Of a stretch of 32,000 nucleotides of DNA, positions 4,456 to 26,519 are shown piece by piece. The stretch is from Cereibacter sphaeroides 2.4.1 (GTDB lineage Bacteria > Pseudomonadota > Alphaproteobacteria > Rhodobacterales > Rhodobacteraceae): positions 1 to 32,000 of the forward strand of contig NC_007489.1 of assembly GCF_000012905.2 (NCBI RefSeq). The letters run 5' to 3'. Numbering within the stretch: position 1 is the stretch's first letter; each line of letters opens with the position of its first letter. The notes under the pieces are model-generated. The model saw only the letters and a program-made list of their open reading frames with translations, ran no database searches and was not told the origin of the DNA. The translations under genes and the position numbers were made by a program.

Positions 4456-4456
4456 C

Positions 4457-7613: not shown

Positions 7614-8154
7614 TTGAACCTGACGGGTGACACAGAGGGAAGATGGCTGCCGGAGTTGGAGCCTGTCGTCGCAGCGCGGGCGGATGCCGCCCCATGGGCT
7701 TCACGGGCCATGGCCGGGGGTTTGCTCGTCGATGTCCGGAAAGTCGCTCGTGCGTCCGCAGGGCGGTGCGCCATGGCTGCCGCACGGGACTTGGCCCGTA
7801 GGCTGGCCCGTCCGCATCAGGCTCCCGGGCCCTGCGGCATGACTTTTATCGCTCCCCTGGCAGGCTGCCAAGCGGCCGAGCCCCCTGCCATGCCCTGTCC
7901 GCTGCCCTAAGGCGACGTGCGGGGCCCGTTGCATTTGCGAAAAGGCGGCGCGTGAGAGCCGCAGGCCGGGCCATTACCGGATCGGCCTCTTCTTCGGAAT
8001 ATTGCCGATACACGAAAGTTGCGCAAAAGCCCGTGGAATTATCTTAAGGCGAGTGACGGAATGTCCCACTGGCCGGAGGCGATTTTAATGGCAAAAATGA
8101 AGCCCATGCCGCACTCATCACAACCCTGACTGGTCTCCATCATTCGGAGCTCGA

Positions 8155-8469
8155 ATGTATCATACCAAGCTTAAAGACCTGTCCCTCGAAGAGCTGAAAG
8201 AACTTCGGGTCGAAATAGCTCAGGCCATTACGGCCCAGGAAAGACATTGCAAGCAGGAGGCGCTGGAGCAGCTGCAAGCAAAGGCGCGCCAACTCGGGTT
8301 CAACCTGGAGGAACTTGCCCCTGCGATGCAGCGCGGGCAGGTCGGTGCCATGCTGCGATACGCCAATCCTGCAAACCCCGGGGAAGTCTGGCGCGGCCGT
8401 GGCCGCAAGCCACGCTGGTTCACGCAAGCCATGGCCGCCGGCAAGTCGCCCGAGGAACTCCAGATCTGA
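8155..8469 (+). CDS. H-NS family nucleoid-associated protein (HvrA/Spb type), paralog 1
   Basis: 104 aa. N-terminal coiled-coil (LSLEELKELRVEIAQAI). C-terminal H-NS DNA-binding motif YANPANPGEVWRGRGRKPRWF, ending ..PEELQI. Confidence 0.85.
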   Translation: MYHTKLKDLSLEELKELRVEIAQAITAQERHCKQEALEQLQAKARQLGFNLEELAPAMQRGQVGAMLRYANPANPGEVWRGRGRKPRWFTQAMAAGKSPEELQI

Positions 8470-9068: not shown

Positions 9069-9386
9069 ATGCCCAACCTCGAACTTGACGGCTTGTCCAT
9101 CAAAGAACTGAAAAACCTGCAGACCCAGGTTGCCAAGGCGATCTCGACCTTCGAGGAGCGCCGCAGGAAGGAGGCGTTGAGCGAACTGGAGGAAAAAGCC
9201 CGCGAGCTCGGCTTCAGCCTTTCTGAACTGACCGGCACCGCCCTCACCCGTCAGCGGGCAGGCGCCGCGCCCAAATATGCCAACCCGGACCAGCCCGAGC
9301 AGACCTGGTCGGGCCGCGGCCGCAAGCCGCACTGGTTCGTGGAGGCACTCGCAGCCGGAAAGACCGCCGAGGACCTCCAGATATGA
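9069..9386 (+). CDS. H-NS family nucleoid-associated protein (HvrA/Spb type), paralog 2
   Basis: 105 aa starting at MPNLELDGLSIKELKNLQ (ATG 9069, GGAG 8-11 nt upstream). Motif YANPDQPEQTWSGRGRKPHWF, ending ..AEDLQI. The track ORF begins at 9009. Confidence 0.85.
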   Translation: MPNLELDGLSIKELKNLQTQVAKAISTFEERRRKEALSELEEKARELGFSLSELTGTALTRQRAGAAPKYANPDQPEQTWSGRGRKPHWFVEALAAGKTAEDLQI

Positions 9387-11905: not shown

Positions 11906-12166
11906 ATGGCTTGCAGCCGCGAACAGGATGACGAGCTGGACCTGCTGCGCCGGCGGCAGCTTCTTGACGCCTCCGACCTTGGAGGGGTGATCCGTTTGCG
12001 CCGCGAGCGGCTCGGCATCGCGCAGTTCGAACTGGCATCCTTGGCCGGCATCGATCCCGGAAACCTCTCGAAGATCGAGCGTGGGAGCCGCCGCTCCCAT
12101 CTCGACACATATCTCAAGCTGTGCGGCATTCTCGGCATCGATCTCTTCGCCGAGGCGCGCTCATGA
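11906..12166 (+). CDS. hipB: HipB-type antitoxin, XRE-family HTH regulator
   Basis: 86 aa. HTH region LRRERLGIAQFELASLAGIDPGNLSKIERG. Its stop overlaps the hipA start (ATGA at 12163-12166). Confidence 0.85.
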   Translation: MACSREQDDELDLLRRRQLLDASDLGGVIRLRRERLGIAQFELASLAGIDPGNLSKIERGSRRSHLDTYLKLCGILGIDLFAEARS

Positions 12167-13518
12167 GGATGGACGTCTGGATGGAAGGGAGAGATACGCC
12201 CGTGGGCGTGCTGACCCGCTCGGAAGACAAGAGTCTGTCGTTCGTCTACGCCGGCGACATCGCGCCCGAGCACCGGATCTCGATGTCGTTGCCGATCACC
12301 TCGGAGCCATACAGCGATGCCGATTGCAGGGGCTATTTCGCGAACCTCCTGTTCGAGGGGCCGCAACTCGAACGGGTTCTCGATGGCTTCGGTCTCGACC
12401 GTGGCGACATCGGTGCGCTCCTGTGGCACCTCGGGGCAGACTGCCCGGGCGCCATCTCGATCACCCCCGAGGGCACGGGGCCCGGCAAGATGCCAGGAAG
12501 GTTCCCCGAGGACTACGAACGGCTTTCGGAGGCCCGGCTCCATCAGATCGTCCTGTCGCTGCATCGGCACCGCCGCATGCCCGAGGGAGAGCGCAACCCG
12601 TCACCCGTCGCGGGCGTTCAGGGCAAGATCGCCTGCCTCATGCTCGAGGGGGCGGTCTGGCTGCCCAAGGGCGGCTCCCGCGCACCAACAACACATATTC
12701 TGAAAGTGTCTCCGCACTTCGATCCTGACGTCACACGCCAGGAGACGATCTTGCTCCAGATTGCCTCCGAGATCGGGATCGATGCCGCCGAGACTCGGGA
12801 TCTCGTCTTCGATGTTGGGGGCACGCACATCAACGCGCTCCTGTCGACGCGCTTCGACCGCGATATCGAGATCGCAGAGGGGGCAGGAACAATTCGTCGC
12901 CGACACGCCGAGGACTTCTGCCAGGCGCTCGGTCTGCCACCGAGCCTGAAATACGAGCGCGATGCAGTGGATCCGCATCGCCGTTTCTCGGCCGCCGCCG
13001 TGAATGTCATCGCGGCACAGACGACGGTGCCGGCCCTGGTGACGAGGGATTTTCTGGCACAAACGATCTTCAACCTGCTCGTGGGCAACACGGACAACCA
13101 CGGCAAGAACACGTCGCTTCTCTACCGCGGACGGACGGTCCTCCTGGCGCCGCTTTACGATGTGGCGCCGGTGTTCATGGACAGGCGCGTGACGCACGAA
13201 TTCGCCTTCAGGCATGGCAGCGCGCGCTTCGCCGAGGACTTCGATGTCGATGCCCTGCGAGGGCTGCTGTCCGATCTCGGCTTCGGAAAGCCGCCCGTCG
13301 AGCGGGCGATGAAGCAGATCCAGCAGCTTGCGAAAAGGATATCCGAGCTCTCGGCCCGCCACGCCCCCAAGGGCCTTGTCGATGGTCTCCATGCCCAGGC
13401 GCGCGTGCTCGAGGATGCGCTCGATGTCGACTTCGGTCTTGAAGAACGAGATTACTACGACCGCGTCGTCAGAGATGAGGCGATCGAGGCAGCGGGTGGA
13501 TGGGGTACGTTAAGCTGA
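12163..13518 (+). CDS. hipA: HipA-family serine/threonine kinase toxin
   Basis: 451 aa from MRMDVWMEG. HipA N-terminal coupling region (LSFVYAGD..., CRGYFANLLFEG). Kinase catalytic motif LLVGNTDNHGKNTSLLY followed by LAPLYDV. Confidence 0.9.
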   Translation: MRMDVWMEGRDTPVGVLTRSEDKSLSFVYAGDIAPEHRISMSLPITSEPYSDADCRGYFANLLFEGPQLERVLDGFGLDRGDIGALLWHLGADCPGAISITPEGTGPGKMPGRFPEDYERLSEARLHQIVLSLHRHRRMPEGERNPSPVAGVQGKIACLMLEGAVWLPKGGSRAPTTHILKVSPHFDPDVTRQETILLQIASEIGIDAAETRDLVFDVGGTHINALLSTRFDRDIEIAEGAGTIRRRHAEDFCQALGLPPSLKYERDAVDPHRRFSAAAVNVIAAQTTVPALVTRDFLAQTIFNLLVGNTDNHGKNTSLLYRGRTVLLAPLYDVAPVFMDRRVTHEFAFRHGSARFAEDFDVDALRGLLSDLGFGKPPVERAMKQIQQLAKRISELSARHAPKGLVDGLHAQARVLEDALDVDFGLEERDYYDRVVRDEAIEAAGGWGTLS

Positions 13519-13733
13519 CGATAGCCCCCCCGAGCAGCTCACTTCATCGGTCCCGGAGCATCCGCCTCAGCCCTTGCGCCGACGTCAGAACGTCTGCCCA
13601 CAGCAGGCTGCCTGCGGCGCATTGAGCGCGGGTTCTCTGACGTCAAGCGGAACTCCGCCCGAAAAGCGCTCTCTTATGGCTACCTTATAGCCGCCAGCCG
13701 ACGAAGGAGACGATTGTCGCGCCCTGGCCTCCC

Positions 13734-14153
13734 GTGACACATGACCCCATGATTGGGGATCTGTTGACAGTGAGCTACCGGAGCCGCGTGTGCCTTGCCG
13801 ATCCGGTGGCGGATCTCCTCGGCATCGTTCAGGCGAGCCGGGTCAGAAACCTGCGGCTCGGCATCACGGGGATCCTGCTCTACAACGGCTTTCATTTTGT
13901 GCAAACGATCGAGGGCCCGCAGAACGCCTGCCGGGAGCTGTTCGCGAGGATCTCGGAAGATCCTCGCCATTCCGACATCGTCGCCTTCGGCGTGAGAAAA
14001 ATAGAAAGACGACGGTTTCCGGACTGGTCCATGCGCCTGATCTCGCGGGCGGAACTGCTCGAGACCATGCCCGAGTTGCGGTTGCTCGATCTGAAGGAGC
14101 CTCAGGACATCGAACGGCTTCACGGCAGGGTGCTGGTGGAGCTCTCGTATTGA
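13734..14153 (+). CDS. Short BLUF-domain blue-light photoreceptor (BlrB-like)
   Basis: 139 aa. BLUF pattern: LTVSYRSRV, RVRNLRLGITGILLYNGFHFVQTIEGP, DPRHSDIV, FPDWSM. The start could also be the Met at 13749. Confidence 0.85.
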   Translation: MTHDPMIGDLLTVSYRSRVCLADPVADLLGIVQASRVRNLRLGITGILLYNGFHFVQTIEGPQNACRELFARISEDPRHSDIVAFGVRKIERRRFPDWSMRLISRAELLETMPELRLLDLKEPQDIERLHGRVLVELSY

Positions 14154-14238
14154 GCCGCGGGATCCGCCCAGGAGAGATCGCGGGTCCTTGAAATCCAAAC
14201 GGGCCGGGAGCTTCCCCCCGGCCGCAGCTTTCCGAGCT

Positions 14239-14560
14239 TCAGGCCGCGCCAGGCCGCTGGAAGCTCGCATCGAGCTCATCGTGCCTGTCCGCCAGATCGA
14301 AGTTGAAGCCCTGCCCCGGGCGCACCACGCGAAGCGCGGGCTTCGATGCCCGAAGATCATCCTGCGATCCGCTGCTCGGCGCCCCGGGCCCCTGCCCCTC
14401 CTCGGCGCGGAAGAAGGCGACCGCTTCCTTCAGCTGCTCGGCTTCGAGCGAAAGCTGGCTCGCACCGCTCGCCAATGCCTCGGCGGCAGTGGTGTTCTGC
14501 TGTGTCACCTGATCGAGCTGCTGGATCGCCAGAGATTGCCCGGACAGGCCGGGAATGGCT
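14239..14560 (-). pseudogene. 3' remnant of a methyl-accepting chemotaxis protein gene
   Basis: The minus-strand frame reads ...GQSLAIQQLDQVTQQNTTAAEALASGASQLSLEAEQLKEAVAFFRA..., which is the end of an MCP signalling domain. An acidic tail follows (NFDLADRHDELDASF). An in-frame stop at 14608-14610 lies just upstream, there is no upstream MCP sequence, and only a GTG is available as a start. Confidence 0.7.
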
Positions 14561-14779
14561 CCAGGCAGCCGCGGCCACGCGATTTTCGATATCAGGAGTG
14601 CTCGGCATCAAACGAGGCACGAGTTTCACTCCGAAGCGACAGCTCGTATGAAGGCCGCTTTATTTCGGAAGATCGGTATTGCCGTCGGCTTCGAGCGGTT
14701 GAGATGGGGACGAGCACAACAGGCTGACGCAGGCTCCGTGGAATGCTCTCCTTCCAGAGGCGGATGGCATTCCGGCCCA

Positions 14780-15135
14780 TGGCGGGCTCACATTTCATTC
14801 TGACCATGCTTAGCCACGAATAGATCTCCCATTGATAAAAAAATCTGCGGCCGCCCCGCAGGTGAAAGAAAGGGCTCGCGCTCACGGAGAGCGGTTCTAT
14901 AATCTGATCCCGTCAAGCGTGAATTGCGCAGGGCGGAGATGTATTTTGGCGCTCCAAGGATAATGATGGTTATCTTCAGATAACGCGCGCGCTTCAATAT
15001 AAACACTCACTTTTTCCTGCGACTCCATTTATAATCTTTGGAAACCCGATATTGAATCATATTGATGGTCGGCAAATTTTCGCTTGTAACTGAATTCCGG
15101 TATTCATACCGAATTCCAATCAAGGGAGATCAAAG
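14780..15135 (+). promoter_or_regulatory. AT-rich upstream regulatory region of the 15136 operon
   Basis: Clearly the most AT-rich stretch of the window. TATAAT hexamers at 14898-14903 and 15030-15035. Inverted repeat GTTATCT-tc-AGATAAC at 14969-14984. Inverted repeat GAATTCCGGTAT-tc-ATACCGAATTC at 15092-15116 (one bulge). RBS AAGGGAG at 15122-15128. Confidence 0.5.
14837..14861 (-). terminator. Candidate intrinsic terminator on the minus strand
   Basis: Plus strand reads AAAAAAA-tc-CTGCGG-ccgcc-CCGCAG. On the minus strand this is a 6-bp GC stem with a 5-nt loop followed by a U7 tract. No annotated minus-strand gene ends here. Confidence 0.4.
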
Positions 15136-15645
15136 ATGAAGCAATATGCGAAGATCGCGCTGCTCGGATCCGTCGTCGGCTTTGCGCCGCTGGCTGCGGC
15201 TGCGGCAGACTCTGTGGCCGTGGCTCTGAGCGCCAGTTTCGAACCGGTCTACACCTACGCGGACGATCTCACCTTCACGGGCACCGGCACCGTTGCGGGT
15301 CAGACCATCACCGTCACCGGCGAAACGGACGATGCACTCGGCCCTTGGCTGGGGCACAGTCACGACTTCGAAGGCACCGGCTCGACCCAGGATCAGGAGA
15401 TCACGGTGACCGGGACCGCCTCGGGGACGATGTATGAGGGCCAGGCTCTGAGCTCGCTGAGCGTTGCGGCCGGTATCGGCGCCAGCGCGGCCGCCACCGC
15501 GACCTCGACCCAAGGGGCGACGAGCGCCAGCGCGGCCGCGACCCTCGACGGCAACCCGATCATCATCGAGACCGACTTCGACGGCCGCTCGAACGCCTAC
15601 GAATCCGAAATCGTGATCATGGCCGCGGACCGCCGCCCCCGCTGA
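15136..15645 (+). CDS. Secreted Thr/Gly/Ala-rich hypothetical protein
   Basis: 169 aa. Good RBS. Signal peptide (ALLGSVVGFAPLAAAAADS). Reiterated strings TFTGTGTVAGQTITVTGET and QEITVTGTASGT. Ala/Ser/Thr-rich low-complexity segment. No family recognised. Confidence 0.7.
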   Translation: MKQYAKIALLGSVVGFAPLAAAAADSVAVALSASFEPVYTYADDLTFTGTGTVAGQTITVTGETDDALGPWLGHSHDFEGTGSTQDQEITVTGTASGTMYEGQALSSLSVAAGIGASAAATATSTQGATSASAAATLDGNPIIIETDFDGRSNAYESEIVIMAADRRPR

Positions 15646-15666
15646 GCCAGCTTCTGCACCCAGGTG

Positions 15667-15688
15667 CCCCGCGCGTCATCGCGCGGGG
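15667..15688 (+). promoter_or_regulatory. Intercistronic GC stem-loop (9-bp perfect stem, 4-nt loop), no U tract
   Basis: ccccgcgcg-tcat-cgcgcgggg. Lies 22 nt after the stop of the 15136 gene and 74 nt before the start of the 15762 gene. Confidence 0.6.
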
Positions 15689-15761
15689 TGCCGCAGTTCC
15701 AGCAATACAGGCGTCCGAATGCCCCGCCTTCGGCATCGCTCACTCCAGAGGATGATGCGGC

Positions 15762-17840
15762 ATGTTTCTTCAACGTCTCACCCTGACCCTCTCGGTGTCG
15801 GCTCTGGCGCTGGCCGCGAGCCTTGCCCGGGCCGACGACAAGGCCGTCATCGTCGAGGGCACGGTGGAGAAGACGGCCCCGACCGTGACCGCACCCGAGC
15901 GAAATCCCGCCTCGGGACGGGTCGTTCCCCTGACCGGCCGCTTCGTGCTCAACGATGAATATTTCGACTACGGACAGGGCCCGAAATTTTCGGCGCTCTC
16001 CCTGGCAGGCTCCTCCCGCGAATGGGACCTCGAGATCTCGGGCACACATCCGATCCATCAGTCCGTCCATGAGACGGTCAGCGAGCAGCTCTATCTGCGC
16101 GAACAGGAAGGTTGGTACTTCCAGCTGCGCAACGTCGACCGCCGCCGCACCACCAAGGTCACCCGGCGCGAAGCGGTGGACATCTACGGCTTCCAGCTCG
16201 ACCTGACCGTCACCGGGGGGTGCTTCTTTCCAGAATCCGCACCCGGCACCTACTGCACCTACACGCCGTCCGTCGCAGTCGACCCTGACAGCATCAACCC
16301 CGACACCCTCATCCCCGGCGCCTTCATCTTCGGCGAGGACACCGGCGCCGTGATCTCGCAGGAGACGCATGAGGCCCTGAAAGCCGAAGGCTTCCAGCGC
16401 GGCCTCGACGGCGGCGATGAAACCGTCGGCGTCTCCCTGTCCGTGCCGAACTCCGGATACGAGGCCAGCGAAAGCCGCTCGAACCTGAATTCGGTGGAGC
16501 GCTACGAGTCCGTGGACAAGCGCATCATGGGCGGGCTCTACAAGTTCCGCCAGGTGCTCAGCAGCAACAGCACCATGGCCTCCCTCGCCCGCACCACCCG
16601 TGGCCTCGTCTTCCTCGACGCAAACGAATGGACCGACAAGGCCGCCGCCACGCAGCTTCTCGCCTGGCTGCTGCCCTCCGCGCGCGCGCCCCTGCAGGCC
16701 ACCGATCGGAACGCCCGCCTGAGCATCGGCAACAACCTCTTTCTGGCAGCCAACAACACCCGCCTTCCCGCGGACAGCTTCACAGCCTACCACGCGGGCG
16801 TGGGCTATGTGGACCATCCCAAAAAGCGCGTGAGATCCGCAGCCGACACCCCCAGATCCGTCTTCAACAGCTTCTGGATGGGCTTTTCGCCGGTGCGCGA
16901 CATCACGACCGGATCCAGCTCGCGGCTGCAGGTGACCGGTCCGCGGGAGAGCCTGCTCGAGAACGGCTATGCCTTCTCGCAGGGGGGCATCGATACCGCC
17001 CTCGCAAGCGAGACCGCAATCTACGTCGTGGACCAGATCAGCGAGCAGATCGCACAGATCGAACTCGCCAACATCGACGATCTCTTCATCCAGTCCGGCC
17101 TCGATCTCACGCGGCAGGACGCCATGGCCATCTACACGACCACCGAGGAGTCGCGGTACAAATATGTCCCGCATCTCGCCTTCTCCGGAAACGTCACCTC
17201 AGGGACAAGCGTCTCCCGCTATTATGCCGGCGCCATCCTCGGCGACGAGACGAACGCCTATGTGGGCTTCGATCATTCCTACACCGGCCTGAACGGGTTC
17301 TCGTTCTACCTCCTCGGCGAGCATTACACCCATCCCGACCGGGACTATTTCAGCAAGGTCGAGGCGCGCATCAGCAAGGCCGTGCAGCTGCGAAACGGCG
17401 CGAAGCTGTCCTTCGGCGTCAGCGCCGCCGAGGAACTCGATCGGGCGCCCGCCCAGCAGGAGAGCGTCACGCTGAACGACAACGACCGGACGCTCGACGT
17501 TGCGATGTCCTACCGGACGCCCAAGGGCCTGACCTACAGCCTGAGCCACCGGCTCGTTCAGGCCGAGGACGGGGATGACGCCGAAAGCACCTCCGTCGGG
17601 TTCAGCTACAGGGCGTCGGACGACTGGTCCTTCACCGCGCAGATCACGCCGACGTCGACCGAAGATGCCTATATCGCGGCTCGCGCCGGATTCTCCTGGC
17701 GCCAGTCCGGCCGCCCCGGGTCTCCCGTCCTCGGCGTGCAATGGGCCTCCATCAGATACGACTACGGCGAGGATCAATTCGGCAACGACCTGCGGGACCG
17801 CGAGGATACCCTCCTCGTGTCCTACAAGATGAGCTTCTGA
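15762..17840 (+). CDS. Large outer-membrane beta-barrel protein, family unknown
   Basis: 692 aa. AGAGGA 9 nt upstream of the ATG. Signal peptide (LSVSALALAASLARADD). The C-terminal ~250 aa show an alternating beta-strand pattern and end DTLLVSYKMSF (terminal Phe, an OM-barrel signature). Third-codon-position G/C bias supports this frame over the antisense 525-aa ORF. Confidence 0.75.
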   Translation: MFLQRLTLTLSVSALALAASLARADDKAVIVEGTVEKTAPTVTAPERNPASGRVVPLTGRFVLNDEYFDYGQGPKFSALSLAGSSREWDLEISGTHPIHQSVHETVSEQLYLREQEGWYFQLRNVDRRRTTKVTRREAVDIYGFQLDLTVTGGCFFPESAPGTYCTYTPSVAVDPDSINPDTLIPGAFIFGEDTGAVISQETHEALKAEGFQRGLDGGDETVGVSLSVPNSGYEASESRSNLNSVERYESVDKRIMGGLYKFRQVLSSNSTMASLARTTRGLVFLDANEWTDKAAATQLLAWLLPSARAPLQATDRNARLSIGNNLFLAANNTRLPADSFTAYHAGVGYVDHPKKRVRSAADTPRSVFNSFWMGFSPVRDITTGSSSRLQVTGPRESLLENGYAFSQGGIDTALASETAIYVVDQISEQIAQIELANIDDLFIQSGLDLTRQDAMAIYTTTEESRYKYVPHLAFSGNVTSGTSVSRYYAGAILGDETNAYVGFDHSYTGLNGFSFYLLGEHYTHPDRDYFSKVEARISKAVQLRNGAKLSFGVSAAEELDRAPAQQESVTLNDNDRTLDVAMSYRTPKGLTYSLSHRLVQAEDGDDAESTSVGFSYRASDDWSFTAQITPTSTEDAYIAARAGFSWRQSGRPGSPVLGVQWASIRYDYGEDQFGNDLRDREDTLLVSYKMSF

Positions 17841-17857
17841 GGGATGGAGGAAGAAAG

Positions 17858-18229
17858 ATGTTGAGCTCCCGCATGGCCCGCTCCGCTCTGGCCGGACTGG
17901 CCCTCATGGCGTCTGCAGGCCTCGTGGCGGCCGATCCCGTGCCCCCCGGCTCCTCCGGCGTGCGGCTCGTCGTGATCGGAGAGGGCGCCTTCGGTTCCGA
18001 CAGCTTCAGGATGACCGGCCTGAACCTCGTCCATGGATCGGGCGACGGAGGAGCGCAGTTCGACTCCAGCCTCGACGGCCTCCAGTGGTCCTGCGACGGC
18101 GACGACTGCAACACGCGATCCGCAAGCTACGCAGGGATCGAGGACTGGAGCGTCGTGCAGACCGTGCGGGCCTGCAGAGAGGCCGATTGCGCCTTCTCCT
18201 CCGATATCCGGCTCCAGGGCACTGAGTAA
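17858..18229 (+). CDS. Small secreted Cys-containing hypothetical protein
   Basis: 123 aa from MLSSRMARSALAGLALMASAGLVAADP. RBS GGAGGAAG upstream. Starts 17 nt after the barrel gene stop. Four Cys (WSCDGDDC ... ACREADC). The track ORF starts at 17741. Confidence 0.65.
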   Translation: MLSSRMARSALAGLALMASAGLVAADPVPPGSSGVRLVVIGEGAFGSDSFRMTGLNLVHGSGDGGAQFDSSLDGLQWSCDGDDCNTRSASYAGIEDWSVVQTVRACREADCAFSSDIRLQGTE

Positions 18230-18359
18230 GGGCCGCCTCCCTGCCGGATTTTGATCCCCGATCGGGGTGAGAAGGGGCTGAAGAGCGCCACCTCAACGCC
18301 CCCTGCTCGCCATCTCCGTGCGATGGGGAAGGGGTGCGGTGCCTTCCCAACCTCCCGCC

Positions 18360-18833
18360 TCAATGGACGAGGCAGGAGGTGATGGCGGAGGAATTCTTCA
18401 GCGAAACGGGGATTTCGGTGTCATCGCCGAAGCGGACGGACATGGCTCGACCCGAAGCGATGGCGGTGATCACGCGGTCATAGGCAGCACGCTGGGCAGG
18501 GCTCTCCTTCCAGGAGGAGTGGAAGGCCATACGCGTGGTGCCGCGGGTTGCACTGAAAGTGATCGGGGCATCGGTGAGGATCGTGCCATCGATCATGATC
18601 CGGCCCGTGCCGGTGCCGACATGGTTGCCCTTGAGGTCGATGTCGAGGGAGCTGCCGATGGTCGAGCAGCCGTAACCGATGCCGAAGTCGGCGTCATGCT
18701 CGCCGTAGCCGCCTTCGAACTGGGCCATCGGGGCGGTGGCGTGGAACCATTCCTCCCCGGCCTGAGCGCCGGTGGCGGAAGCTGCGAGGCAGGGCGCGAA
18801 AAGGCAGACGGTAAGCGCACGGAAAATATTCAT
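18360..18833 (-). CDS. Secreted hypothetical protein
   Basis: 157 aa. Signal peptide (LTVCLFAPCLAASATGAQA). Beta-rich, ends ...NSSAITSCLVH. Convergent with the preceding operon. Confidence 0.6.
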   Translation of the reverse strand: MNIFRALTVCLFAPCLAASATGAQAGEEWFHATAPMAQFEGGYGEHDADFGIGYGCSTIGSSLDIDLKGNHVGTGTGRIMIDGTILTDAPITFSATRGTTRMAFHSSWKESPAQRAAYDRVITAIASGRAMSVRFGDDTEIPVSLKNSSAITSCLVH

Positions 18834-19451
18834 GAAAATCTCCGGAATGTCGGTCGTTCTGTCGCCAGCCGCAGCCTGTGCGGCGCCGGCCCGGCGGTCA
18901 GGCAGGCACCGGTTCGGGGAAGGTGAGGAGCGGGCACAGCCGGATCAAGACAGGCCCCTGCGGGAGAGGAGCGGCAGGTCGCCGCACGGGCGGAAGGGGG
19001 TTCGGATCGGCCGCGATGGCCGCCTCATGGCCCGTGCCGGGCATTGCCGCGATCAAGCTCCGATCAGGAGAAGGCGCGCGACCGCGCGACGGAGTGCCTC
19101 CGGCTGAGGCACCCCGCTTTCCTCCCAGACCGGTCAGACCTCTTGAGAGGGCCGGCCTGTATCCGGCCAGACGCCGCCTCATCCCTTTCCATCAGGCCTC
19201 TTCTCCCCGGGAAGAAGCCACTCGATCTCCCTCTCGTCGAAGGCGTCCGCGTCGAAGGCGGACACGTCGTCCGGCAACGCCGCCTTCAGGAGGCGGTCCG
19301 GCTTCGGACGCAGGATGGGACTTGGGGCCTTGCCCTGCAATGCAGCCGCCTTATCCGCGGGGATCCAGCCCCGCGGCCGGACTTTGAAGTTGCTTCACCC
19401 CTTCCGATGTTTCAGGCTCGGGGCAACGGGCCTATCGTAAACGGGGGTGTC

Positions 19452-20072
19452 ATGAGGAAATTCGTATCGATTGCCATCACGGCCCTCGTCCTGTCGACAA
19501 TGGGCGCGGCCGCTCAGTCCATCAGTGCGGCGGAGATCGCCAAGATGGTCGACCAGCGAATGAACGATCTCAATCCCTATCAGGCACTGCTCAACGACCC
19601 GGATCCCGCCCGCGCTCAGGCGGCAATGCAGATCATGCTCGAGAGCGGAGATGCAGATCTGACGCGGATGGCGCTGGAATACGGCCTGCTTTCTCCCAAT
19701 CCGACGGTCAAGCGGCTGGCCCTCGAAAGCTGGCTGTCTACGGGTCCTGTCCTGTCCATTCGGTTCGACGGAACGAAGGTGCAGGCCAAGGATTTCCCGT
19801 CCAGGGTCAAGAACTACTGGAACGGAAACGTCAGCGACGGGATCGGATACTGGCGCGTGGGCGTCGGAAAATACCTTCCGGATCTCAAATGCTTCAGCAA
19901 CACAGACAGGGCCGACCGATGCTTCATCACCGTCAATGGTGACGGCGTGTTCCTCACACCGGAAGCCCTGAACGGGCGCGCCGTCATCACGGACACAGGG
20001 CAGCTGGAAGGCACCGGCGCCTTGTACGGGATCGAGGAGCCGGTTTCCTTCTCCATTCGCCTGCTCGACTGA
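19452..20072 (+). CDS. Secreted hypothetical protein (helical-repeat N-terminus, beta-rich C-terminus)
   Basis: 206 aa from MRKFVSIAITALVLSTMGAAAQS. HEAT-like segment DPDPARAQAAMQIMLESGDADLTRMALEYGLLSPNPTVKRLALESW. The track ORF (from 19044) has an Arg/Pro-rich, non-protein-like N-terminus. Confidence 0.6.
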   Translation: MRKFVSIAITALVLSTMGAAAQSISAAEIAKMVDQRMNDLNPYQALLNDPDPARAQAAMQIMLESGDADLTRMALEYGLLSPNPTVKRLALESWLSTGPVLSIRFDGTKVQAKDFPSRVKNYWNGNVSDGIGYWRVGVGKYLPDLKCFSNTDRADRCFITVNGDGVFLTPEALNGRAVITDTGQLEGTGALYGIEEPVSFSIRLLD

Positions 20073-20087
20073 GAGGCTCTCGACGGC

Positions 20088-21155
20088 TCATTGCGCCACG
20101 ACGCTGTCGATCGCAATGTCGCCGCTCGACCAGGCATTGAGCACGATGACCTGAAGGGCGCGGATGTTGCGAGGCGCAAGCAGGCCCGTATCGAAAACTC
20201 CGTCCCGTCCCATTTCGCCACGCGTCCACTCGCGGAAGTTGCGCCCGTCGGCCTCGAGCGACCAGTTCAGAATGATCCGCTTGGGCATGGTCCGGCCTTC
20301 GGACGGCGTCGAACGCAGGACCACCCGCGAGACCGGGGCCGTCTCCTCAAGCCTGAGCACGAAGGACATCCGGGCCGCCGGCGAGAAGACGAACTGCCCC
20401 CCGCCCAACATGTTTTCCGGCGCAAAGCGCGGATTGACCGGCGGCATGGTCGCGGCCTCGAAGACAAGCGGCAAAGCTCCTTCAGCCGCCGGCGCCGGCG
20501 TGACGGGCTCGTCCGGCTCCGGTGGCACATAGGCACCCGCCTGCTCGCTGAGATAGCGCCGGACATGGATCAGTATCTCTCCCGATCGAATGAACGTGGC
20601 GCGTGACGTGTCGTTCGACGTGACCGCCATGCCCAGCGGCTTGCCATCGACGAACAGGAAGGCCCCCGACGTGCCCTGGGCGATGGTGTTCTGGCCGCCC
20701 GCCAGTTCGGCATCGAAAGTCAGATAATTCCGGTTCCCGATGCGAAGCGCCGTTCGCTCCTCCTCGCCGGCCGGCGTCAGGCGATGCAGATAGCCCATGG
20801 CCGCATTCAGCGACTGCGGCGTTTCCTCGAGATCGTCCAGCCTCGCCGGACAGCGGCTGTCGAGGGCGCTGCCCCCCACGCCAACGGCCAGGTCGATCTC
20901 CGGCCAGAAGGGGGCAATCGTGGTCGCTGAGCTCGTCACCACAGGCGCCGAGGTCATGATGCTGACCTTCGGATAGAGGCCTGCCACATGCTTCGGCATA
21001 AGGACATAGCAGCGTCCCTCATATCCGAACATCCAGCCGAAGCCATGCTCCCCTTCGCCGTTTCGGACCGAGACCGTTTGGGAATGCGCCAGGGCAGGAT
21101 AGACTGCAACGATCATGCTCAGAATCGCTGACACTCTCATGAGACGTCCTGGCAT
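20088..21155 (-). CDS. Secreted trypsin-like (S1-type) serine protease with C-terminal discoidin/galactose-binding-like domain
   Basis: Signal peptide MRVSAILSMIVAVYPALAHS. Candidate triad in H-D-S order: CYVLMPKHV, EIDLAVGV, GTSGAFLFVDGKPLGMAV. The C-terminal ~130 aa are beta-sandwich-like (RVVLRS...RALQVIVLNAWSSGDIAIDSV). Start at 21155 or 21140; the track ORF extends to 21299. Confidence 0.6.
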   Translation of the reverse strand: MPGRLMRVSAILSMIVAVYPALAHSQTVSVRNGEGEHGFGWMFGYEGRCYVLMPKHVAGLYPKVSIMTSAPVVTSSATTIAPFWPEIDLAVGVGGSALDSRCPARLDDLEETPQSLNAAMGYLHRLTPAGEEERTALRIGNRNYLTFDAELAGGQNTIAQGTSGAFLFVDGKPLGMAVTSNDTSRATFIRSGEILIHVRRYLSEQAGAYVPPEPDEPVTPAPAAEGALPLVFEAATMPPVNPRFAPENMLGGGQFVFSPAARMSFVLRLEETAPVSRVVLRSTPSEGRTMPKRIILNWSLEADGRNFREWTRGEMGRDGVFDTGLLAPRNIRALQVIVLNAWSSGDIAIDSVVAQ

Positions 21156-21852
21156 TTTCCCCTCATTGGCTGTGCTGCTGACGGTTCTGCAGCTGCCTGC
21201 ACCGGCATTTGCGGATGGCAGGCCCATGTTTGCATTGAATGAGCAGGGCTTCCAGGAATTCGTCCGCGATGGCGCTCTGATATCCGGCGCAGTCGTCATG
21301 GGCGTTCAATTCCACCGAATGGCCAAGGACGTACCGGCACTTTCAGCTTATGTACCCGCCGAATGGAGAGGGGATCGGCTCTGTCTGAGGGTCGTCTCCT
21401 CGAATGGCTTCTATCAGGGCATAGCCCCCTACGATGTGCCATCCGACTGGTCAGGAGGATTCGCCGATCTGGATTTCCCGATCAAGGCGAGACACGGACC
21501 GATGTTGAAAGGCCTCTCGGAAGGCGACCTGAGCATCCTGCTTGCGAAGGGAGAATGCGAAGGATCGGCCACACCCGTGGCCTCGGTCGCCTATTGGGAC
21601 GCGGAGACCTCCGACCAGGTGGACCTCATGCTGAATTCGTTTCGGGCGGATCTGGTCTATGCCTATGTCGAAGGGCGGGACACTCCGGTCAAATGCGAGA
21701 AACTGGACGAAGAGGACGCAACGACCTTCGACACCAGATGCCCGATCGAATTGAAGAGCCCCGCTGGCCCGAGAACGATCGAGACATACCGCATCGTCGG
21801 CGGCAAACCGTCACCCGCCGCATCGATCGTGATCTGGTTTCCTGACCCTTGA
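21139..21852 (+). CDS. Secreted hypothetical protein
   Basis: 237 aa from MRRPGIFPSLAVLLTVLQLPAPAFADG. Several Cys. Its 5' end overlaps the 5' end of the divergent protease gene. The track ORF starts at 21115. Confidence 0.55.
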   Translation: MRRPGIFPSLAVLLTVLQLPAPAFADGRPMFALNEQGFQEFVRDGALISGAVVMGVQFHRMAKDVPALSAYVPAEWRGDRLCLRVVSSNGFYQGIAPYDVPSDWSGGFADLDFPIKARHGPMLKGLSEGDLSILLAKGECEGSATPVASVAYWDAETSDQVDLMLNSFRADLVYAYVEGRDTPVKCEKLDEEDATTFDTRCPIELKSPAGPRTIETYRIVGGKPSPAASIVIWFPDP

Positions 21853-22943
21853 AGACGGAACGGCCGCCAGAGCCCCGCTCCCGGAACGGCTTCAGGATGG
21901 GCGCCGAGCCGGTGCTTCGCCTCGTGACTGCAAGCGCGATCGTGATTGCAGGTCTGACCGGACTGATCCTTTTCCTCTCCGCCTCGAGCGAGCGCAGCTA
22001 CAGCATCGCAGCCAGGACCTTGGGAGCGGAGTTGACCTTCAAGGGACAATCCAACGATTGGCTCCTTGAAAAGGTCGACATCTGCAAGATGCGTGGACCG
22101 GAGGACATGCGCCTTCCCGCCCCCGGAGACGACCGGCGCTGTCCCGAGACGCTCTACGAAGTCCTTCCGCAGGCGGAGACCGTCCTGCACTGGCCGCCGG
22201 ACACCAGGATCGGGATCAGGCACGAACCTTCGGGCGATCTGATCTTCATCGTCCTGTCGGCAAACGTACCCGATCTGCCGGAGGGCTCCCTCGTCATGGT
22301 CCCGGCCGAGGCCTGGCAGACCCATGGCGCGCTGGCCTTTCAGGCCGAGGTCCGCATCGGTGGCCTGATGGCCACCGGAAGCGAGGACTATCTGATGGAG
22401 GGAAGATGGGAAGCCCGGCAAAGCGGGATCGCCGCCTCCTTGCGCGCCAATGTCGCCGAAGTGGTCGGCTCGGGCGCCCTGTCGCTCGGCACGACGGTCG
22501 AGCTCATCGATACACGCGACACTGCGGCCGGAATTGTCAGTTTCGGCCATGTCACGCCGACGGTCTCGCGCGACGAGCGGGGCTTCGATATCGAGCTTCT
22601 TTCCGAGCGTGGCTCCGTAGCGCTTCGGGTATGGCATTTCGGCCTGCAGGAGCCGACCATCTTCCGGCCGGACTGGATGGATGTCGTCTCATCCAGCCCC
22701 ATACTGGTTGCCCTGGGCCCGCTCGTGGCGCTGGTGGCAGGTCTTGTCGAACTCATGGTCAAGGTCCGCGCAGGGGGCAGGCCCGTCCCTGCATCGCCAG
22801 CCCCCGACCCTTCCGTCCCCGAAACCGGACAGTCCGTGCGCCTCCGCAAATCCGGAAAATCGAAGGCCAGGCAGAATTCTGCGGCGCGCCCGTATCGCAA
22901 GACCTCTTCCAGGCCGGCTCGAAGGAGGCGTTCATCGCCCTAG
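21849..22943 (+). CDS. Membrane protein with two TM segments flanking a ~250-aa periplasmic domain and a basic C-terminal tail
   Basis: TM1 LVTASAIVIAGLTGLILFLSA. TM2 ILVALGPLVALVAGLVELMV. Tail rich in R/K/S/P. A TTG at 21849 overlaps the upstream stop; an alternative ATG is at 21897. Confidence 0.55.
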   Translation: MKTERPPEPRSRNGFRMGAEPVLRLVTASAIVIAGLTGLILFLSASSERSYSIAARTLGAELTFKGQSNDWLLEKVDICKMRGPEDMRLPAPGDDRRCPETLYEVLPQAETVLHWPPDTRIGIRHEPSGDLIFIVLSANVPDLPEGSLVMVPAEAWQTHGALAFQAEVRIGGLMATGSEDYLMEGRWEARQSGIAASLRANVAEVVGSGALSLGTTVELIDTRDTAAGIVSFGHVTPTVSRDERGFDIELLSERGSVALRVWHFGLQEPTIFRPDWMDVVSSSPILVALGPLVALVAGLVELMVKVRAGGRPVPASPAPDPSVPETGQSVRLRKSGKSKARQNSAARPYRKTSSRPARRRRSSP

Positions 22944-23210
22944 CCCCGCCCTGCCGCAAGCCGAGCCGGGGAAGACGGCGCGCCACCTTCTGCAGCATTC
23001 GCGCGGCGCGGCGAGCCGGGACTTCCTCCGGAGGAGCCCCCGTCTTGCCCGATGCTTCCGCCGGTCCCACGCGGATCAATAGCCTCCACTTCCTGCGACA
23101 AAAGCGCCCGCCGCGGTCCGAAAAATCCGTGCTAGCACTGGGCGCGAAGCCGCGGTCGAGACCACCGGCAGGCAGGTCCGGCCGGCAGCTGTTCATGTTG
23201 GGACGGAACA

Positions 23211-23603
23211 ATGAGGCACTGGATACTTCCCCTCTCCGGGATCCTGCTCGCCCTGCCCGTGCAGAGTTTTGCGGGCTGCTTGTCCTGCGATGACATCGTC
23301 CACCTGGGCCTGCCGGAGCAGGCCTGCTTCAGGACGCTCTTCGAGCAGGAGGGACTGCCGTCACAGGACGGTGCGCCCCACAGATACGATCTGTCGCGCT
23401 GCCTCGAGAGCCGGGCGAGCCTCGAGCGCGGCGGACTGGTCACCATGCCCGATCTGACCGGTGCGATTGCCGCAGCCTCCGGGATCAGGCACGAGAAGAG
23501 GGTCTATGTCCTCGATTATCCCTATGCCTCCTGCCTTGTCACGATCATCACCGGCATGCGCGGGCGCGCCGGAACGGTCGATCTGACCCGACTTTGTCCC
23601 TGA
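23211..23603 (+). CDS. Small exported protein, probable lipoprotein
   Basis: 130 aa. Signal peptide with a lipobox-like SFAGC. Seven Cys in total. Confidence 0.55.
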   Translation: MRHWILPLSGILLALPVQSFAGCLSCDDIVHLGLPEQACFRTLFEQEGLPSQDGAPHRYDLSRCLESRASLERGGLVTMPDLTGAIAAASGIRHEKRVYVLDYPYASCLVTIITGMRGRAGTVDLTRLCP

Positions 23604-23610
23604 GACGTCG

Positions 23611-24192
23611 ATGTTCGTCCCCCGCCTGACCCTGAAATGGATGGGACTGGCCGGCAGCCTCGTCAAAGGTGCCGCAGGACTTGCTGCGGCAGGATCCTTG
23701 TTTCTTGCCGCGGTCGAATATGCCGATCAGGGAAAGGCCGCACGCGCCGCCGAAACGATCCGGCTGATCGACCGGTGGGAGGAGACGACGAGCGGTGTTC
23801 TCACCGCCTATCGGAGCCTCGGCCAAAGATTGACCCTGGCGCTCGCGGAGCGAACTCCCGCCCTCGACGGCACGCGCCCGCCCGAAGAGCTCGCAGCCCT
23901 GCTCGTGGCGGACGTTCTCCAGCAGGAAGGTGCCGCCGACGAATTCGAAAGGATCGTCTATTTCTTCACCAGGCTCGAACTCTGCATCGAGGCCACGCTC
24001 TGCGACGAGCATACCGCAGCCATCTTCTTCTCCGACACGGTCGATACCTTCATGAAGAACTTCCGCAGCGCGGTTCTGGAACGCCGCAGATCCGACCCGC
24101 ATTTCGGTTCAGAAATCCGGAAACTCCAGATCCGGCTCAACCGCTCCGCCGCAGGCCAGGACGCGTTCGACCCCGACAGGCCTCTTCCGTAG
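23611..24192 (+). CDS. Membrane-anchored hypothetical protein
   Basis: 193 aa. N-terminal TM (AAGLAAAGSLFLAAV) followed by a helical domain. Starts 7 nt after the upstream stop. A vague resemblance to DUF4760-type proteins is not trusted. Confidence 0.5.
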   Translation: MFVPRLTLKWMGLAGSLVKGAAGLAAAGSLFLAAVEYADQGKAARAAETIRLIDRWEETTSGVLTAYRSLGQRLTLALAERTPALDGTRPPEELAALLVADVLQQEGAADEFERIVYFFTRLELCIEATLCDEHTAAIFFSDTVDTFMKNFRSAVLERRRSDPHFGSEIRKLQIRLNRSAAGQDAFDPDRPLP

Positions 24193-24207
24193 GGCGGGGT
24201 ACATGTG

Positions 24208-25656
24208 ATGCAGCCCCTGATCGCGAACATCGTCCAGCATCTCGGGGGGACACGCCTGTTTCGCCTGCTCCTGGTAGCCCTCGCCCTTCAGGCCGTGCTC
24301 GCCGCTCCCGCCGCCGCAGCCCGGCTGGCGCTCGTCGTGGGGATCGACGCCTACGCACATGTGCCCCGCCTGCAGAAAGCAGTGAACGACGCAGGTGCCG
24401 TGGCAGGAGCCCTGACGCAGGCCGGCTTCGAAACCGTGCTGCTCACCGATACCGACCAGCTCCAGCTCATGGAGGGGGTGACCGCCTTTGCCGCCAGACT
24501 GCGGCCGGGCGACGAGGCCGTCTTCTTCTTCGCCGGCCATGGCGTCGAGATCGCCGGGCAGAACTACCTGCTCCCTGCAGACGTGCCCGCCGTCACCTCC
24601 GGTCAGGAGCTCCTTCTCACCAGCCGCGCCCTCGAGATCGACACCCTGGTACAGGAGCTCCAGATACGCGGCACGAGAGTGACCCTGCTCATCCTCGATG
24701 CCTGCAGGGACAACCCGTTCCGCCGGCCCGGCGGGCGCGGGATCGGGGGCGCGCGGGGGCTGGCGCGGGTCGATGCGCCTGAGGGAAGCTTCATCCTGTT
24801 TTCTGCAGGCTCCGGCCAGACGGCTCTGGACCGCCTGGCCAACGACGAGGCTGCCCCGAACTCGGTCTTCACCCGCACCCTCCTGCCCTACCTCTCTGCG
24901 CCCGGTCTGGAAGTGCGCGAGATCTCGCAACGCGTGCGCTCCGACGTCCGCAAACTCGCGCTCACGGTTCAGCATGACCAGTTTCCCGCGGTCTACGACC
25001 AGCTGGACGGAAGCTTCGTGCTGATGCCCTCCAGCACCGCGGCCCCGCCGATGACGACGAGCGCGCCCGCCCCCGCCGTCGATCCCTGCGCTTCGGCCCG
25101 GCTCGACTGGCCGCTCGTCTCGGCCGTGCGAAGCGCCGCGGCCCTCGACGCCTTCGCGATGAGCCACGCCGACTGCCCCGTCTTCGCAGCCATGGCGCGC
25201 GAGATGCGCATGCAGATCGGCCTCCCATCCCCCCAACCGCAGCCGCTCGACCCTCCCCCGGCGCCTTCCCTGGAAGAGCGCGTGCGAGATTTCGTGGCCA
25301 GGATCGTGGCCGAATGGTCCTCGCCCAATGCGATCGCCCTGCCCCCGCTGGCCAGCTACTTCGCGCAAGACATGATCTACTACGGCAATCGCAAGACCAG
25401 AGCCCAGGTCGTGGCGGAAAAGACTGCCGTTGCGAAACGCTGGCCGGTCCGCGACTACCGCATCGAGGACGGCAGCCTCTTCGCCTCCTGCGCCGCCTCA
25501 CGCTGCGATGTCAGCGCGATCATCGACTGGCAGGCCTATGCGCCTGAGCGCAATGCCACGGCCTCCGGACGATCAAGCTACGAGGTGACCGTCGAAGACC
25601 TTCAAGGCACGCTCGTCGTCACCCGGGAGAACGGACAGACGATTCAGCGGAACTGA
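24208..25656 (+). CDS. Caspase-family (peptidase C14) protein with N-terminal signal/anchor and an uncharacterised C-terminal domain
   Basis: Hydrophobic N-terminus LFRLLLVALALQAVLAAPAAAA. Caspase core RLALVVGIDAY. Catalytic His context VFFFAGHG. Catalytic Cys context LLILDACRDNPF. Pro-rich linker, then a ~130-aa domain. A GTG at 24205 is an alternative start. Confidence 0.8.
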   Translation: MQPLIANIVQHLGGTRLFRLLLVALALQAVLAAPAAAARLALVVGIDAYAHVPRLQKAVNDAGAVAGALTQAGFETVLLTDTDQLQLMEGVTAFAARLRPGDEAVFFFAGHGVEIAGQNYLLPADVPAVTSGQELLLTSRALEIDTLVQELQIRGTRVTLLILDACRDNPFRRPGGRGIGGARGLARVDAPEGSFILFSAGSGQTALDRLANDEAAPNSVFTRTLLPYLSAPGLEVREISQRVRSDVRKLALTVQHDQFPAVYDQLDGSFVLMPSSTAAPPMTTSAPAPAVDPCASARLDWPLVSAVRSAAALDAFAMSHADCPVFAAMAREMRMQIGLPSPQPQPLDPPPAPSLEERVRDFVARIVAEWSSPNAIALPPLASYFAQDMIYYGNRKTRAQVVAEKTAVAKRWPVRDYRIEDGSLFASCAASRCDVSAIIDWQAYAPERNATASGRSSYEVTVEDLQGTLVVTRENGQTIQRN

Positions 25657-25773
25657 CGGCCGCGCCCGGTCGCACGGGGCCCCGGCCGCTCTCCGGTTTG
25701 ACGGTTTGGATCTTGCCTCTTCGCGAGGGAACGACAACAGAAGAGGGAGGAAAGAGGGAGGAAGCGGAACCGG
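25544..25773. repeat. Direct repeat R1 (last 113 nt of the caspase CDS plus 117 nt downstream)
   Basis: Aligns by hand with 28624-28843 in the same orientation. Contains a conserved stem-loop (cctcttc-17 nt-gaagagg, 25716-25746) and a 25-nt all-purine tract (25740-25764). Confidence 0.85.
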
Positions 25774-26421: not shown

Positions 26422-26519
26422 TCCTGGAGCGCAGGGCGCGTTCGGGCGATGCCAACTTTGGCCAGGACATCCCAGCACTCGAGCCGTGGCAAACGCCCCA
26501 TTTGCCGGCTGCAGCGCTC

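Follow-up and report, generated by a model that had tools for sequence, protein, structure and literature searches.

The first 32,000 nucleotides (nt) of contig NC_007489.1 of Cereibacter sphaeroides 2.4.1, referred to here as the window, contain three adjacent genes on the forward strand that we call A, B and C. They encode a small Ala/Thr/Gly/Ser-rich protein, a large predicted outer-membrane beta-protein and a second small protein, and in RefSeq each of them is labelled 'hypothetical protein'. Positions 14600-18400 of the window are 100% identical to the ~105-107 kb plasmid of C. (Rhodobacter) sphaeroides 2.4.1 and its derivatives. Among the loci compared here the window copy is L008, the coordinates of which are converted to window coordinates by adding 599. 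The original prediction, made from the letters of the window alone, described three same-strand open reading frames (ORFs) with signal peptides, and these are present exactly as described: the 169-aa repeat protein, the 692-aa protein ending DTLLVSYKMSF and the 123-aa protein with four cysteines are all found at the positions given in Table 1.

In each of the three N-termini, as read from the sequence, a basic n-region and a hydrophobic core lead up to a cleavage site of the AxA type, with Asp as the next residue (A, LAAAAA/DS; B, SLARA/DD; C, GLVAA/DP, with the slash marking the end of the signal peptide). The same reading found no lipobox cysteine and no twin-arginine motif in A, B or C. The mature A and C proteins would be ~145 and ~98 aa. 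A is composed of 18% Ala, 12% Thr, 11% Gly and 9.5% Ser with 0 Cys, and contains the predicted TGTGT and ITVTG strings, the latter as GQTITVTGET and DQEITVTGTA. B has two cysteines, both invariant across its family, and the four of C are spaced CX4C twice. A and B are separated by 116 nt and B and C by 17 nt. Gene C has a GGAGGA ribosome-binding site 7 nt before its ATG; in RefSeq the gene starts at 17873, which gives 118 aa.

Table 1. Features of the A-B-C locus, in window coordinates
Feature	Position	Strand	Description
AT-rich upstream (promoter/regulatory) region	14800-15135	+	GC 0.455 against a window mean of 0.649
Gene A	15136-15645	+	169-aa ORF; putatively Sec-exported, Ala/Thr/Gly/Ser-rich, Cys-free; ribosome-binding site AAGGGAGA upstream
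Intercistronic GC-rich stem-loop in the A-B spacer	15663-15692	+	Minimum-free-energy fold; 8-bp stem CCCCGCGC/GCGCGGGG
Gene B	15762-17840	+	692-aa ORF; predicted outer-membrane beta-protein, Pfam DUF8396; ends DTLLVSYKMSF
Gene C	17858-18229	+	123-aa ORF; putatively Sec-exported, Ser/Gly/Ala-rich, four Cys

The product of gene B is a member of a recently defined domain of unknown function, which is catalogued but uncharacterised. The PF28436 (DUF8396) tag is carried by the window protein (P0001) and by 17 other homologues (18/18), and spans the whole conserved length of these 18 first-round homologues. This assignment is a precomputed tag, the Pfam copy that was searched being that of 2025, without the PF28436 model. 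The Pfam definition of DUF8396 does not include the partner genes A and C, and no name, structure or paper was found in the literature for DUF8396, PF28436 or the RefSeq accessions. The trio had been called an orphan with a barrel of unknown family. 'Orphan' is too strong a word, since B carries DUF8396 and this domain is widespread in filamentous cyanobacteria. B does have a family, though one with no functional name.

Searches of Pfam (2025), NCBIfam, PHROGs and PADLOC gave no significant functional family match for A, B or C, and searches of PDB sequences gave none for B alone or for profiles of the B and A orthologues. Against Pfam, the 18 B homologues showed only a sub-threshold similarity to YadA_anchor, in 4/18, and porin models did not even reach E = 1. 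The YadA_anchor (trimeric autotransporter) candidate was rejected as generic beta-hairpin similarity, the best E-value among the four being 0.0029 and the window protein scoring 11.4 bits against a cut-off of 22.7. A confident match of B to a known porin or usher family would have counted against the original prediction, but in Pfam, NCBIfam, PDB and Foldseek searches B maps to no porin, usher, TpsB, LptD, secretin or TonB-receptor family.

The AlphaFold2 model of B, built on an 18-sequence alignment, has a mean predicted local distance difference test (pLDDT) score of 81.5 and a predicted template modelling (pTM) score of 0.73. Residues 1-56, comprising the signal peptide and a linker, are disordered in the model, and residues 57-692 are nearly all beta, with 391 strand residues. 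Twelve regular hairpin strands, each of ~12 residues, make up the last ~210 residues. In the N-terminal half the strands are longer and are interrupted at three places by non-strand insertions (154-223, 285-339 and 398-441). A separate N-terminal region of ~400 aa had been proposed ahead of the barrel, but the model shows strands from residue 57 to the end. B is thus modelled as a single large, all-beta chain into which conserved insertions are set, and it falls into none of the known barrel families. The signal peptide, the 391 strand residues and the terminal VSYKMSF, with its alternating hydrophobic residues and final Phe, are consistent with an outer-membrane barrel, the closure of which is an estimate from the DSSP string. 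Foldseek comparison of the model with the PDB gave only generic large barrels, with template modelling (TM) scores of 0.16-0.26, a probability of ~1 and identities of 7-10%. The matches were TonB-dependent receptors, LptD, MtrB, PapC/FimD and OccK.

The invariant residues of B are C154, C165-T-Y-T-P, the NNLFLAANNTRLP helix, W372xGxSP and RYYAG. The first two insertions and the central strands are the best conserved parts of the protein, and the regular hairpins of the last 170 residues the least conserved. This pattern would be expected if the first two insertions formed a functional gate or binding site.

DUF8396 is rare. A profile search of 1.84 billion representative proteins identified 173 clusters, full-length or fragmentary, mostly from filamentous cyanobacteria. 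A further scan, which took a single genome for each species and started from one conserved motif, so that its proportions are approximate, identified 49 loci: 47 in cyanobacteria, one in C. johrii and one in an uncultured gammaproteobacterium. Almost all of the cyanobacterial hosts are filamentous, these being Microcoleus, Nostoc, Nodularia, Planktothrix, Arthrospira, Trichodesmium, Okeania, Symploca, Coleofasciculus, Lyngbya, Tychonema and Scytonema. Among 72,556 plasmid records, B is present only on Cereibacter plasmids.

The gene order A-B-C recurs in some ten distinct loci of proteobacteria. These are the window, C. johrii (L010), C. azotoformans plasmid pORIO1 (L062/L088) and the metagenomic loci L004/L064, L059, L060/61, L001-3, L068-71, L072 and L073/74, to which L066 and L067 can be added, with recognisable but more divergent A and C in the same positions. 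A lies directly upstream of B in every proteobacterial locus with upstream sequence, and C lies 17-40 nt downstream of B in loci of the alphaproteobacterial type. Across the trio loci the identity of B is 35-80% and the locus GC 0.51-0.67. Beyond the trio, none of the genes is common to the compared loci, so the boundaries of the module are those of A-B-C. A lack of co-conservation elsewhere would likewise have counted against the original prediction, but the three genes are co-conserved in these loci with differing flanking genes. On gene order and neighbourhood, A-B-C is a genuine, self-contained and co-conserved envelope module. A gammaproteobacterial type (L011, L063) consists of two tandem 110-aa A-like genes, then B and then a different ~207-aa exported protein; the tandem copies are seen in a gammaproteobacterial metagenome-assembled genome.

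The A orthologues share three core segments, VAVALSASF, LSSLSVAAGIG and AYESEIVI. Between the first two of these there is an insert in the Cereibacter lineage and the related L004, which in Cereibacter holds the TVTG repeats. Other lineages have different additions. In L059 the A orthologue (2115-2678) has nine collagen-like GXY triplets at its C-terminus (GPAGPAGPAGADGAVGPQGAPGAQGAPG; Pfam Collagen, E 5.6e-5; NCBIfam SclB-like, E 9e-4), and in L001 (7220-7855) it has a heptad-like, acidic, coiled-coil-like stretch (LAALEVGLEDLEQFVDDEVERIEALI) followed by a Cys-pair domain. Judged by their sequences, such collagen-like and heptad-like parts are typical of surface-displayed proteins. One 875-aa protein from the search of representative proteins, P0042, was considered as an A-B fusion and was not used as such. 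It has an A-like domain (11-138), then a signal-peptide-like segment (…SSALLALSGGPAHA/QD) and then DUF8396 (205-875), and most likely represents neighbouring genes that were run together into a single ORF.

The C proteins share the segment VRLVVIG.G. The segments ISISAGVG and PYETxVC are present in the L060/L070/L072/L074 group and imperfect in L059 and L003. A and C appear to have a common layout of an N-terminal strand, an SVSVAAxG-type motif and a C-terminal strand of the AYETxVSF/PYETxVC type; the small protein found beside B in cyanobacteria, described below, has the first two of these elements. In hhalign comparisons of A with the cyanobacterial small protein, A with C, and C with the cyanobacterial small protein, the probability was at most 9%, and in iterated hidden Markov model searches the three families never merge. 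The best local hhalign match, obtained with the second A alignment, was each time the SVSVAAxG/ISISAGVG/GVAVAAAVG motif, which lies at a similar N-terminal distance in the compared small proteins. We take this likeness as a lead only.

In the cyanobacteria the partner of B is a distinct exported, Ala/Gly-rich protein of ~135 aa, encoded within 4 kb of B in 24/31 loci with complete flanks. Its consensus is GEGGxAGxAAFTV...VTGVAVSAAVGKxxAAA...NSAxAxGxAG. There are 1-3 paralogues per locus, often 2-3 in Nostocales, and most metagenomic cyanobacterial loci likewise carry such a partner. In 16/31 complete cyanobacterial loci the gene of a modular adhesin separates the small gene from B. This adhesin starts with DUF4347, continues with variable cadherin, PPC, beta-propeller or NIDO modules and ends in RTX repeats. 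The presence beside B of a constant DUF4347 on otherwise variable RTX adhesins suggests an anchoring relationship. Literature searches on DUF4347 found nothing relevant. Loci of the Microcoleus type have, ahead of the set, a sigma factor of the extracytoplasmic function (ECF) type with a long C-terminal extension.

The order small protein, DUF4347-RTX adhesin, DUF8396 is seen in L015, L016, L017, L029, L031, L036, L038, L040 and others. In L036, for example, the sigma factor (776-1999) is followed by the small protein (2545-2958), the adhesin (3137-4978) and DUF8396 (5482-7974). Cyanobacterial B homologues (e.g. P0010, P0012, P0018, P0030, P0046 and L030:2440-6972) have 100-850 extra low-complexity residues at the N-terminus, rich in Pro/Ser/Thr/Ala/Gln or, in L030, made of acidic DDIVETDDISET repeats; no proteobacterial B has these. 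Some have a C-terminal PANPFDP...coiled tail. The protein beside B in Arthrospira PCC 7345 is a DUF4347/ELW-repeat/RTX protein with a partly masked sequence. A link to the oscillin homologue NIES39_A01430 (PMC2853384, PMC11632167) was dropped, the identity of the two not being established. 'Pizza' designer propellers, suggested as relatives of the cyanobacterial small protein by a PDB profile search, were also rejected, the similarity being compositional with no single stretch above threshold.

The leader before gene A is the GC minimum of the window at the 200, 300 and 500 bp scales, with GC values of 0.39 (14941-15140), 0.447 and 0.492 respectively. The statement that the operon follows the most AT-rich ~500 bp of the window is therefore borne out. 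A GC drop of 4-25 points precedes gene A in 9/9 proteobacterial loci checked, and the AT-rich leader is therefore, as far as the compared sequences go, a property of the module and not of the C. sphaeroides plasmid. A promoter scan upstream of A did not find a sigma-70 consensus promoter. On the minus strand a terminator-like site (14861-14845) closes the upstream convergent gene. Within 14700-15140 there are two pairs of direct repeats, ATAATGATGGT / ATATTGATGGT, 99 nt apart, and ACTGAATTCC / ACCGAATTCC, 19 nt apart and directly ahead of the ribosome-binding site, which could be binding sites for a regulator.

The A-B spacer holds a hairpin (Table 1). When the window sequence was aligned by RNAalifold with those of L010 (C. 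johrii) and L062 (C. azotoformans type), a 13-pair stem was retained, with compensatory changes on both sides of 3 pairs. No T-run follows it, which would speak for a role in mRNA processing or stability, or for partial attenuation, and less for full termination. Hairpins after the first gene occur in operons that over-produce the first product, such as pap/fim and Rhodobacter puf. By analogy with these, the hairpin suggests that more A is made than B or C. The hairpin and the fibrous inserts in the A orthologues lend indirect support to an earlier proposal that an abundant subunit is paired here with a dedicated barrel.

Two H-NS paralogs had been placed ~6 kb from the operon and are annotated at 8155-8469 and 9069-9386, ~5.7-7 kb upstream of the trio. 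Both are on the plus strand, ~600 bp apart and each behind an AT-rich stretch (GC 0.49-0.55 near 7981 and 8821). C. azotoformans pORIO1 likewise has an H-NS family gene at a distance of ~6 kb (L088 17227-17544; the same in L062). The conserved AT-rich leader and the pORIO1 H-NS gene keep silencing by H-NS in play as a conjecture. Horizontal acquisition had also been proposed, but a recent import is not visible in the composition. The GC content at third codon positions (GC3) of A, B and C (0.83, 0.85 and 0.85) equals that of the neighbouring wzi-like gene (0.84) and manC (0.85), and recent transfer is unsupported because GC3 is host-like. A hint of an older transfer comes only from the patchy phyletic distribution and the plasmid location.

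The A-B-C unit is akin to systems that combine a barrel with a cognate partner, such as two-partner secretion, ushers and LptDE, but in every comparison that we made it lacks the features by which their members are recognised. Two-partner secretion (type Vb) likewise has a dedicated barrel encoded beside a Sec-exported substrate, without an ATPase or inner-membrane component, and a substrate made of a conserved recognition part and a lineage-variable displayed part. However, B has no POTRA domain and no 16-strand barrel of the ShlB/Omp85 type, far more strands being predicted, A has no two-partner secretion (TPS) domain, and the gene order is substrate, barrel, second small protein. In searches for TpsB/Omp85 membership neither B nor A had a Pfam or NCBIfam match at E <= 1, and 0/18 members matched. 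The chaperone-usher pili, with the 24-strand PapC/FimD, share with the module a very large barrel with an internal insert, small Sec-exported subunits encoded upstream and a hairpin after the gene of the major subunit. In addition, the N-terminus of mature A, SVAVALSASF, is an alternating hydrophobic strand reminiscent of a donor strand. B, on the other hand, does not contain the usher domain (PF00577), no pilin or immunoglobulin fold was detected, no chaperone-like gene is present in or beside the trio at any locus, and the Foldseek TM-score with PapC/FimD is only 0.19-0.23.

LptD-LptE and MtrB-MtrA, which are among the top Foldseek matches, resemble the module in having a ~26-strand barrel and a small partner that could occupy the lumen, with TM-scores against B of 0.16-0.21. 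Unlike LptD/LptE (TM 0.16-0.19), B lacks a beta-jellyroll or OstA/LptD domain and A and C are not lipoproteins; unlike MtrB/PioB, B lacks the MtrB_PioB Pfam domain, and A and C have no CXXCH and are not cytochromes. The curli (CsgA/CsgB-CsgG) and Fap systems, like the module, have small, Cys-free, Ala/Gly/Ser/Thr-rich, Sec-exported subunits, the monomers of which are not confidently foldable, and encode major-like and minor-like small proteins beside a dedicated outer-membrane channel. B differs from their channels in being a predicted monomeric giant barrel and not a lipoprotein nonamer or a trimeric 12-strand barrel, and A has no regular amyloid repeat besides its two TVTG units. Neither A, B and C nor the cyanobacterial small proteins had a Pfam or NCBIfam match to the Curlin repeat, CsgG or FapF. 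TonB-dependent receptors gave the best Foldseek E-values for B, yet at TM-scores of 0.19-0.25 and identities of 7-10%, and no match to Plug (PF07715) or TonB_dep_Rec (PF00593) was found at E <= 1.

What, then, might the module do? Our starting points are that the three genes keep their order and are co-conserved, that their products have signal peptides, that B is predicted to be built of beta strands, that no known family takes in any of the three and that a hairpin after A is conserved; everything proposed below on transport, docking, stoichiometry and surface exposure is conjecture. We tentatively read B as a dedicated outer-membrane translocation or anchoring pore for the Sec-exported partners A and C, a reading that we hold to be possible at somewhat less than an even chance. 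A and C would enter the periplasm via Sec. B would be a large all-beta outer-membrane protein, with insertions that probably fill or cover its lumen. The main substrate would be A, made in excess over B, docking to B through its three short conserved beta-segments and passing into or through it to be held or assembled at the surface. The displayed part would be the lineage-variable segment of A, whether TVTG repeats, collagen-like triplets or a coiled-coil-like stretch. C may be a second partner of lesser weight, serving as adaptor, cap or plug. This reading is favoured by the exclusive co-conservation, the near-universal presence of 1-3 small partners, the signal peptides of all three products, the concentration of conserved residues in the insertions of B, the fibrous parts of A, the hairpin and the linkage to adhesins. 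It is also favoured by the modelled architecture of B, for which Foldseek finds likeness only to very large barrels with a protein or plug inside (TonB receptors, LptD, MtrB and PapC/FimD). A role in surface display would agree with the cyanobacterial loci, where a DUF4347-cadherin-RTX adhesin often accompanies the barrel and its different small partner.

In its boldest form, which we regard as unlikely, the proposal would make DUF8396 and its partner or partners a new type of secretion system for protein export and surface anchoring, one that does without Omp85/POTRA, ushers, secretins and CsgG and is found both in filamentous cyanobacteria and in a small number of proteobacteria. Its cyanobacterial task would be to build a surface fibril layer for adhesion or gliding, in which DUF4347-RTX adhesins and small Ala/Gly-rich proteins are anchored or assembled, and in Cereibacter it would display the TVTG-repeat protein A.

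Several points weigh against B as a pore or anchor for A and C. Secretion, surface exposure and contact between A and B are all conjectural. The AlphaFold model of A, from an 11-sequence alignment, has a pLDDT of 33 and is unusable; the estimate of 24-26 strands for B comes from splitting long DSSP runs and not from coordinates, and the Foldseek TM-scores of B are low (0.16-0.26). Homology between the proteobacterial A, C and the cyanobacterial small protein is not demonstrable from their sequences and is not claimed, so a 'universal partner' of B is one of position and composition only. The module encodes no periplasmic chaperone, POTRA domain or energy source, and this leaves the unfolded state and the movement of A unexplained. 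Finally, by analogy with LptE, small partners beside a giant barrel would fit a 1:1 plug of the lumen equally well.

This last point leads to a rival reading, in which A and/or C would sit permanently in the lumen of B at 1:1, as in LptD-LptE or MtrB-MtrA. The stable complex would be a gated channel or insertase for some other cargo, with A and C as structural subunits and not substrates. The best Foldseek matches of B include LptD-LptE, the MtrB sheath and the plugged TonB receptors. To our knowledge, barrels estimated at 22 or more strands always hold a plug or partner protein. A and C are also small (~145 and ~98 aa when mature) and strictly adjoin B, and the most conserved parts of B are internal insertions that could contact a plug. 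However, A and C are not lipoproteins as LptE is and have no CXXCH haem motifs as MtrA has, the collagen-like and coiled-coil-like extensions of the A orthologues would not fit in a lumen, cyanobacteria and the gammaproteobacterial metagenome-assembled genome have 2-3 tandem small-protein paralogues, and the hairpin after A suggests unequal expression. We consider such a plugged complex, the main rival, rather unlikely. Alternatively, B could export or anchor an exopolysaccharide (capsule, cellulose or slime) with A and C as accessory periplasmic or surface proteins. The trio is 7.5 kb from wzi-family, phosphomannomutase and GDP-mannose genes in the window, and on pORIO1 it is divergent from a cellulose synthase operon, bcsA-bcsB followed by a glycoside hydrolase family 8 (GH8) gene (L088 1-7473), in a stretch in which no obvious outer-membrane BcsC barrel was seen. 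Most cyanobacterial hosts in the genome scan are filamentous, and filamentous cyanobacteria are generally known for abundant slime. The polysaccharide genes nevertheless differ between the two Cereibacter replicons and are absent beside the trio in L001, L004, L059, L060 and L066. Nor do the cyanobacterial loci contain them, the genes that recur there being those of adhesins, the ECF sigma factor and two-component regulators, and no glycosyltransferase or Wza/Wzc-type gene is co-conserved with B. A polysaccharide role is in our estimate improbable.

A further suggestion is that B is an ordinary substrate-specific porin with unrelated small periplasmic neighbours, together by chance and forming no functional module. 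Database labels lean this way, the C. johrii homologue being called 'Beta-barrel porin 2' in UniRef and another homologue 'opacity protein-like surface antigen' by the Joint Genome Institute (JGI), and B ends in a standard beta-signal-like motif. Against this, the A-B-C order with gaps of 17-150 nt is kept where the identity of B has fallen to 35-45% and GC ranges from 0.51 to 0.67, and all other neighbours change between the trio loci. No Pfam porin model reached E = 1 in 18 members, and B, with 692 aa and conserved insertions, is far larger than diffusion porins. A chance grouping around a porin is very improbable indeed.

Several other gene sets surround the trio in the window. On the minus strand at 3046-7601 is a surface-polysaccharide set comprising a phosphomannomutase (3046-4455), a mannose-1-phosphate guanylyltransferase/isomerase (4457-5884) and a Wzi-family capsule-assembly outer-membrane protein (6369-7601). 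The region 11906-14508 contains a helix-turn-helix regulator and a HipA-domain kinase that look like a toxin-antitoxin pair (HipA_C, E 1e-35), a stand-alone BLUF blue-light sensor (13749-14153, E 7e-26) and, on the minus strand at 14239-14508, an 89-aa fragment annotated 'chemotaxis protein', which resembles the leftover C-terminus of a methyl-accepting protein. Downstream of the trio is a 10-kb run without Pfam matches (18360-28492) with at least 10 ORFs, several of them with signal peptides, e.g. 18360-18833 on the minus strand and 19452-20072. It is broken only by a caspase-family gene (Peptidase_C14, E 4e-26; 24208-25656) and a 'viral aspartic protease' (27605-28492). The genes at 18360-18833, 19452-20072 and 20088-21116 have no counterpart at the DUF8396 loci compared.

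The unit built around DUF8396 is shared with other proteobacteria, and many filamentous cyanobacteria have an altered version of it; it is probably an undescribed device for surface export or anchoring. No prior description of the small partners of B, or of the cyanobacterial linkage to adhesins, was found in the literature. C. sphaeroides 2.4.1 is genetically tractable and carries the module on a plasmid. Even as an LptDE-like plugged channel, B would stand for a giant-barrel family that is new and depends on its partners. As a dedicated pore or anchor, B would represent a new outer-membrane export architecture that uses no POTRA domain, chaperone or lipoprotein. It would then also provide the first functional handle on Pfam DUF8396, which is conserved across many ecologically important filamentous cyanobacteria, among them Microcoleus, Nostoc, Planktothrix, Arthrospira and Trichodesmium, and there sits beside large RTX adhesins, in organisms where the attachment of surface fibrils is of interest.

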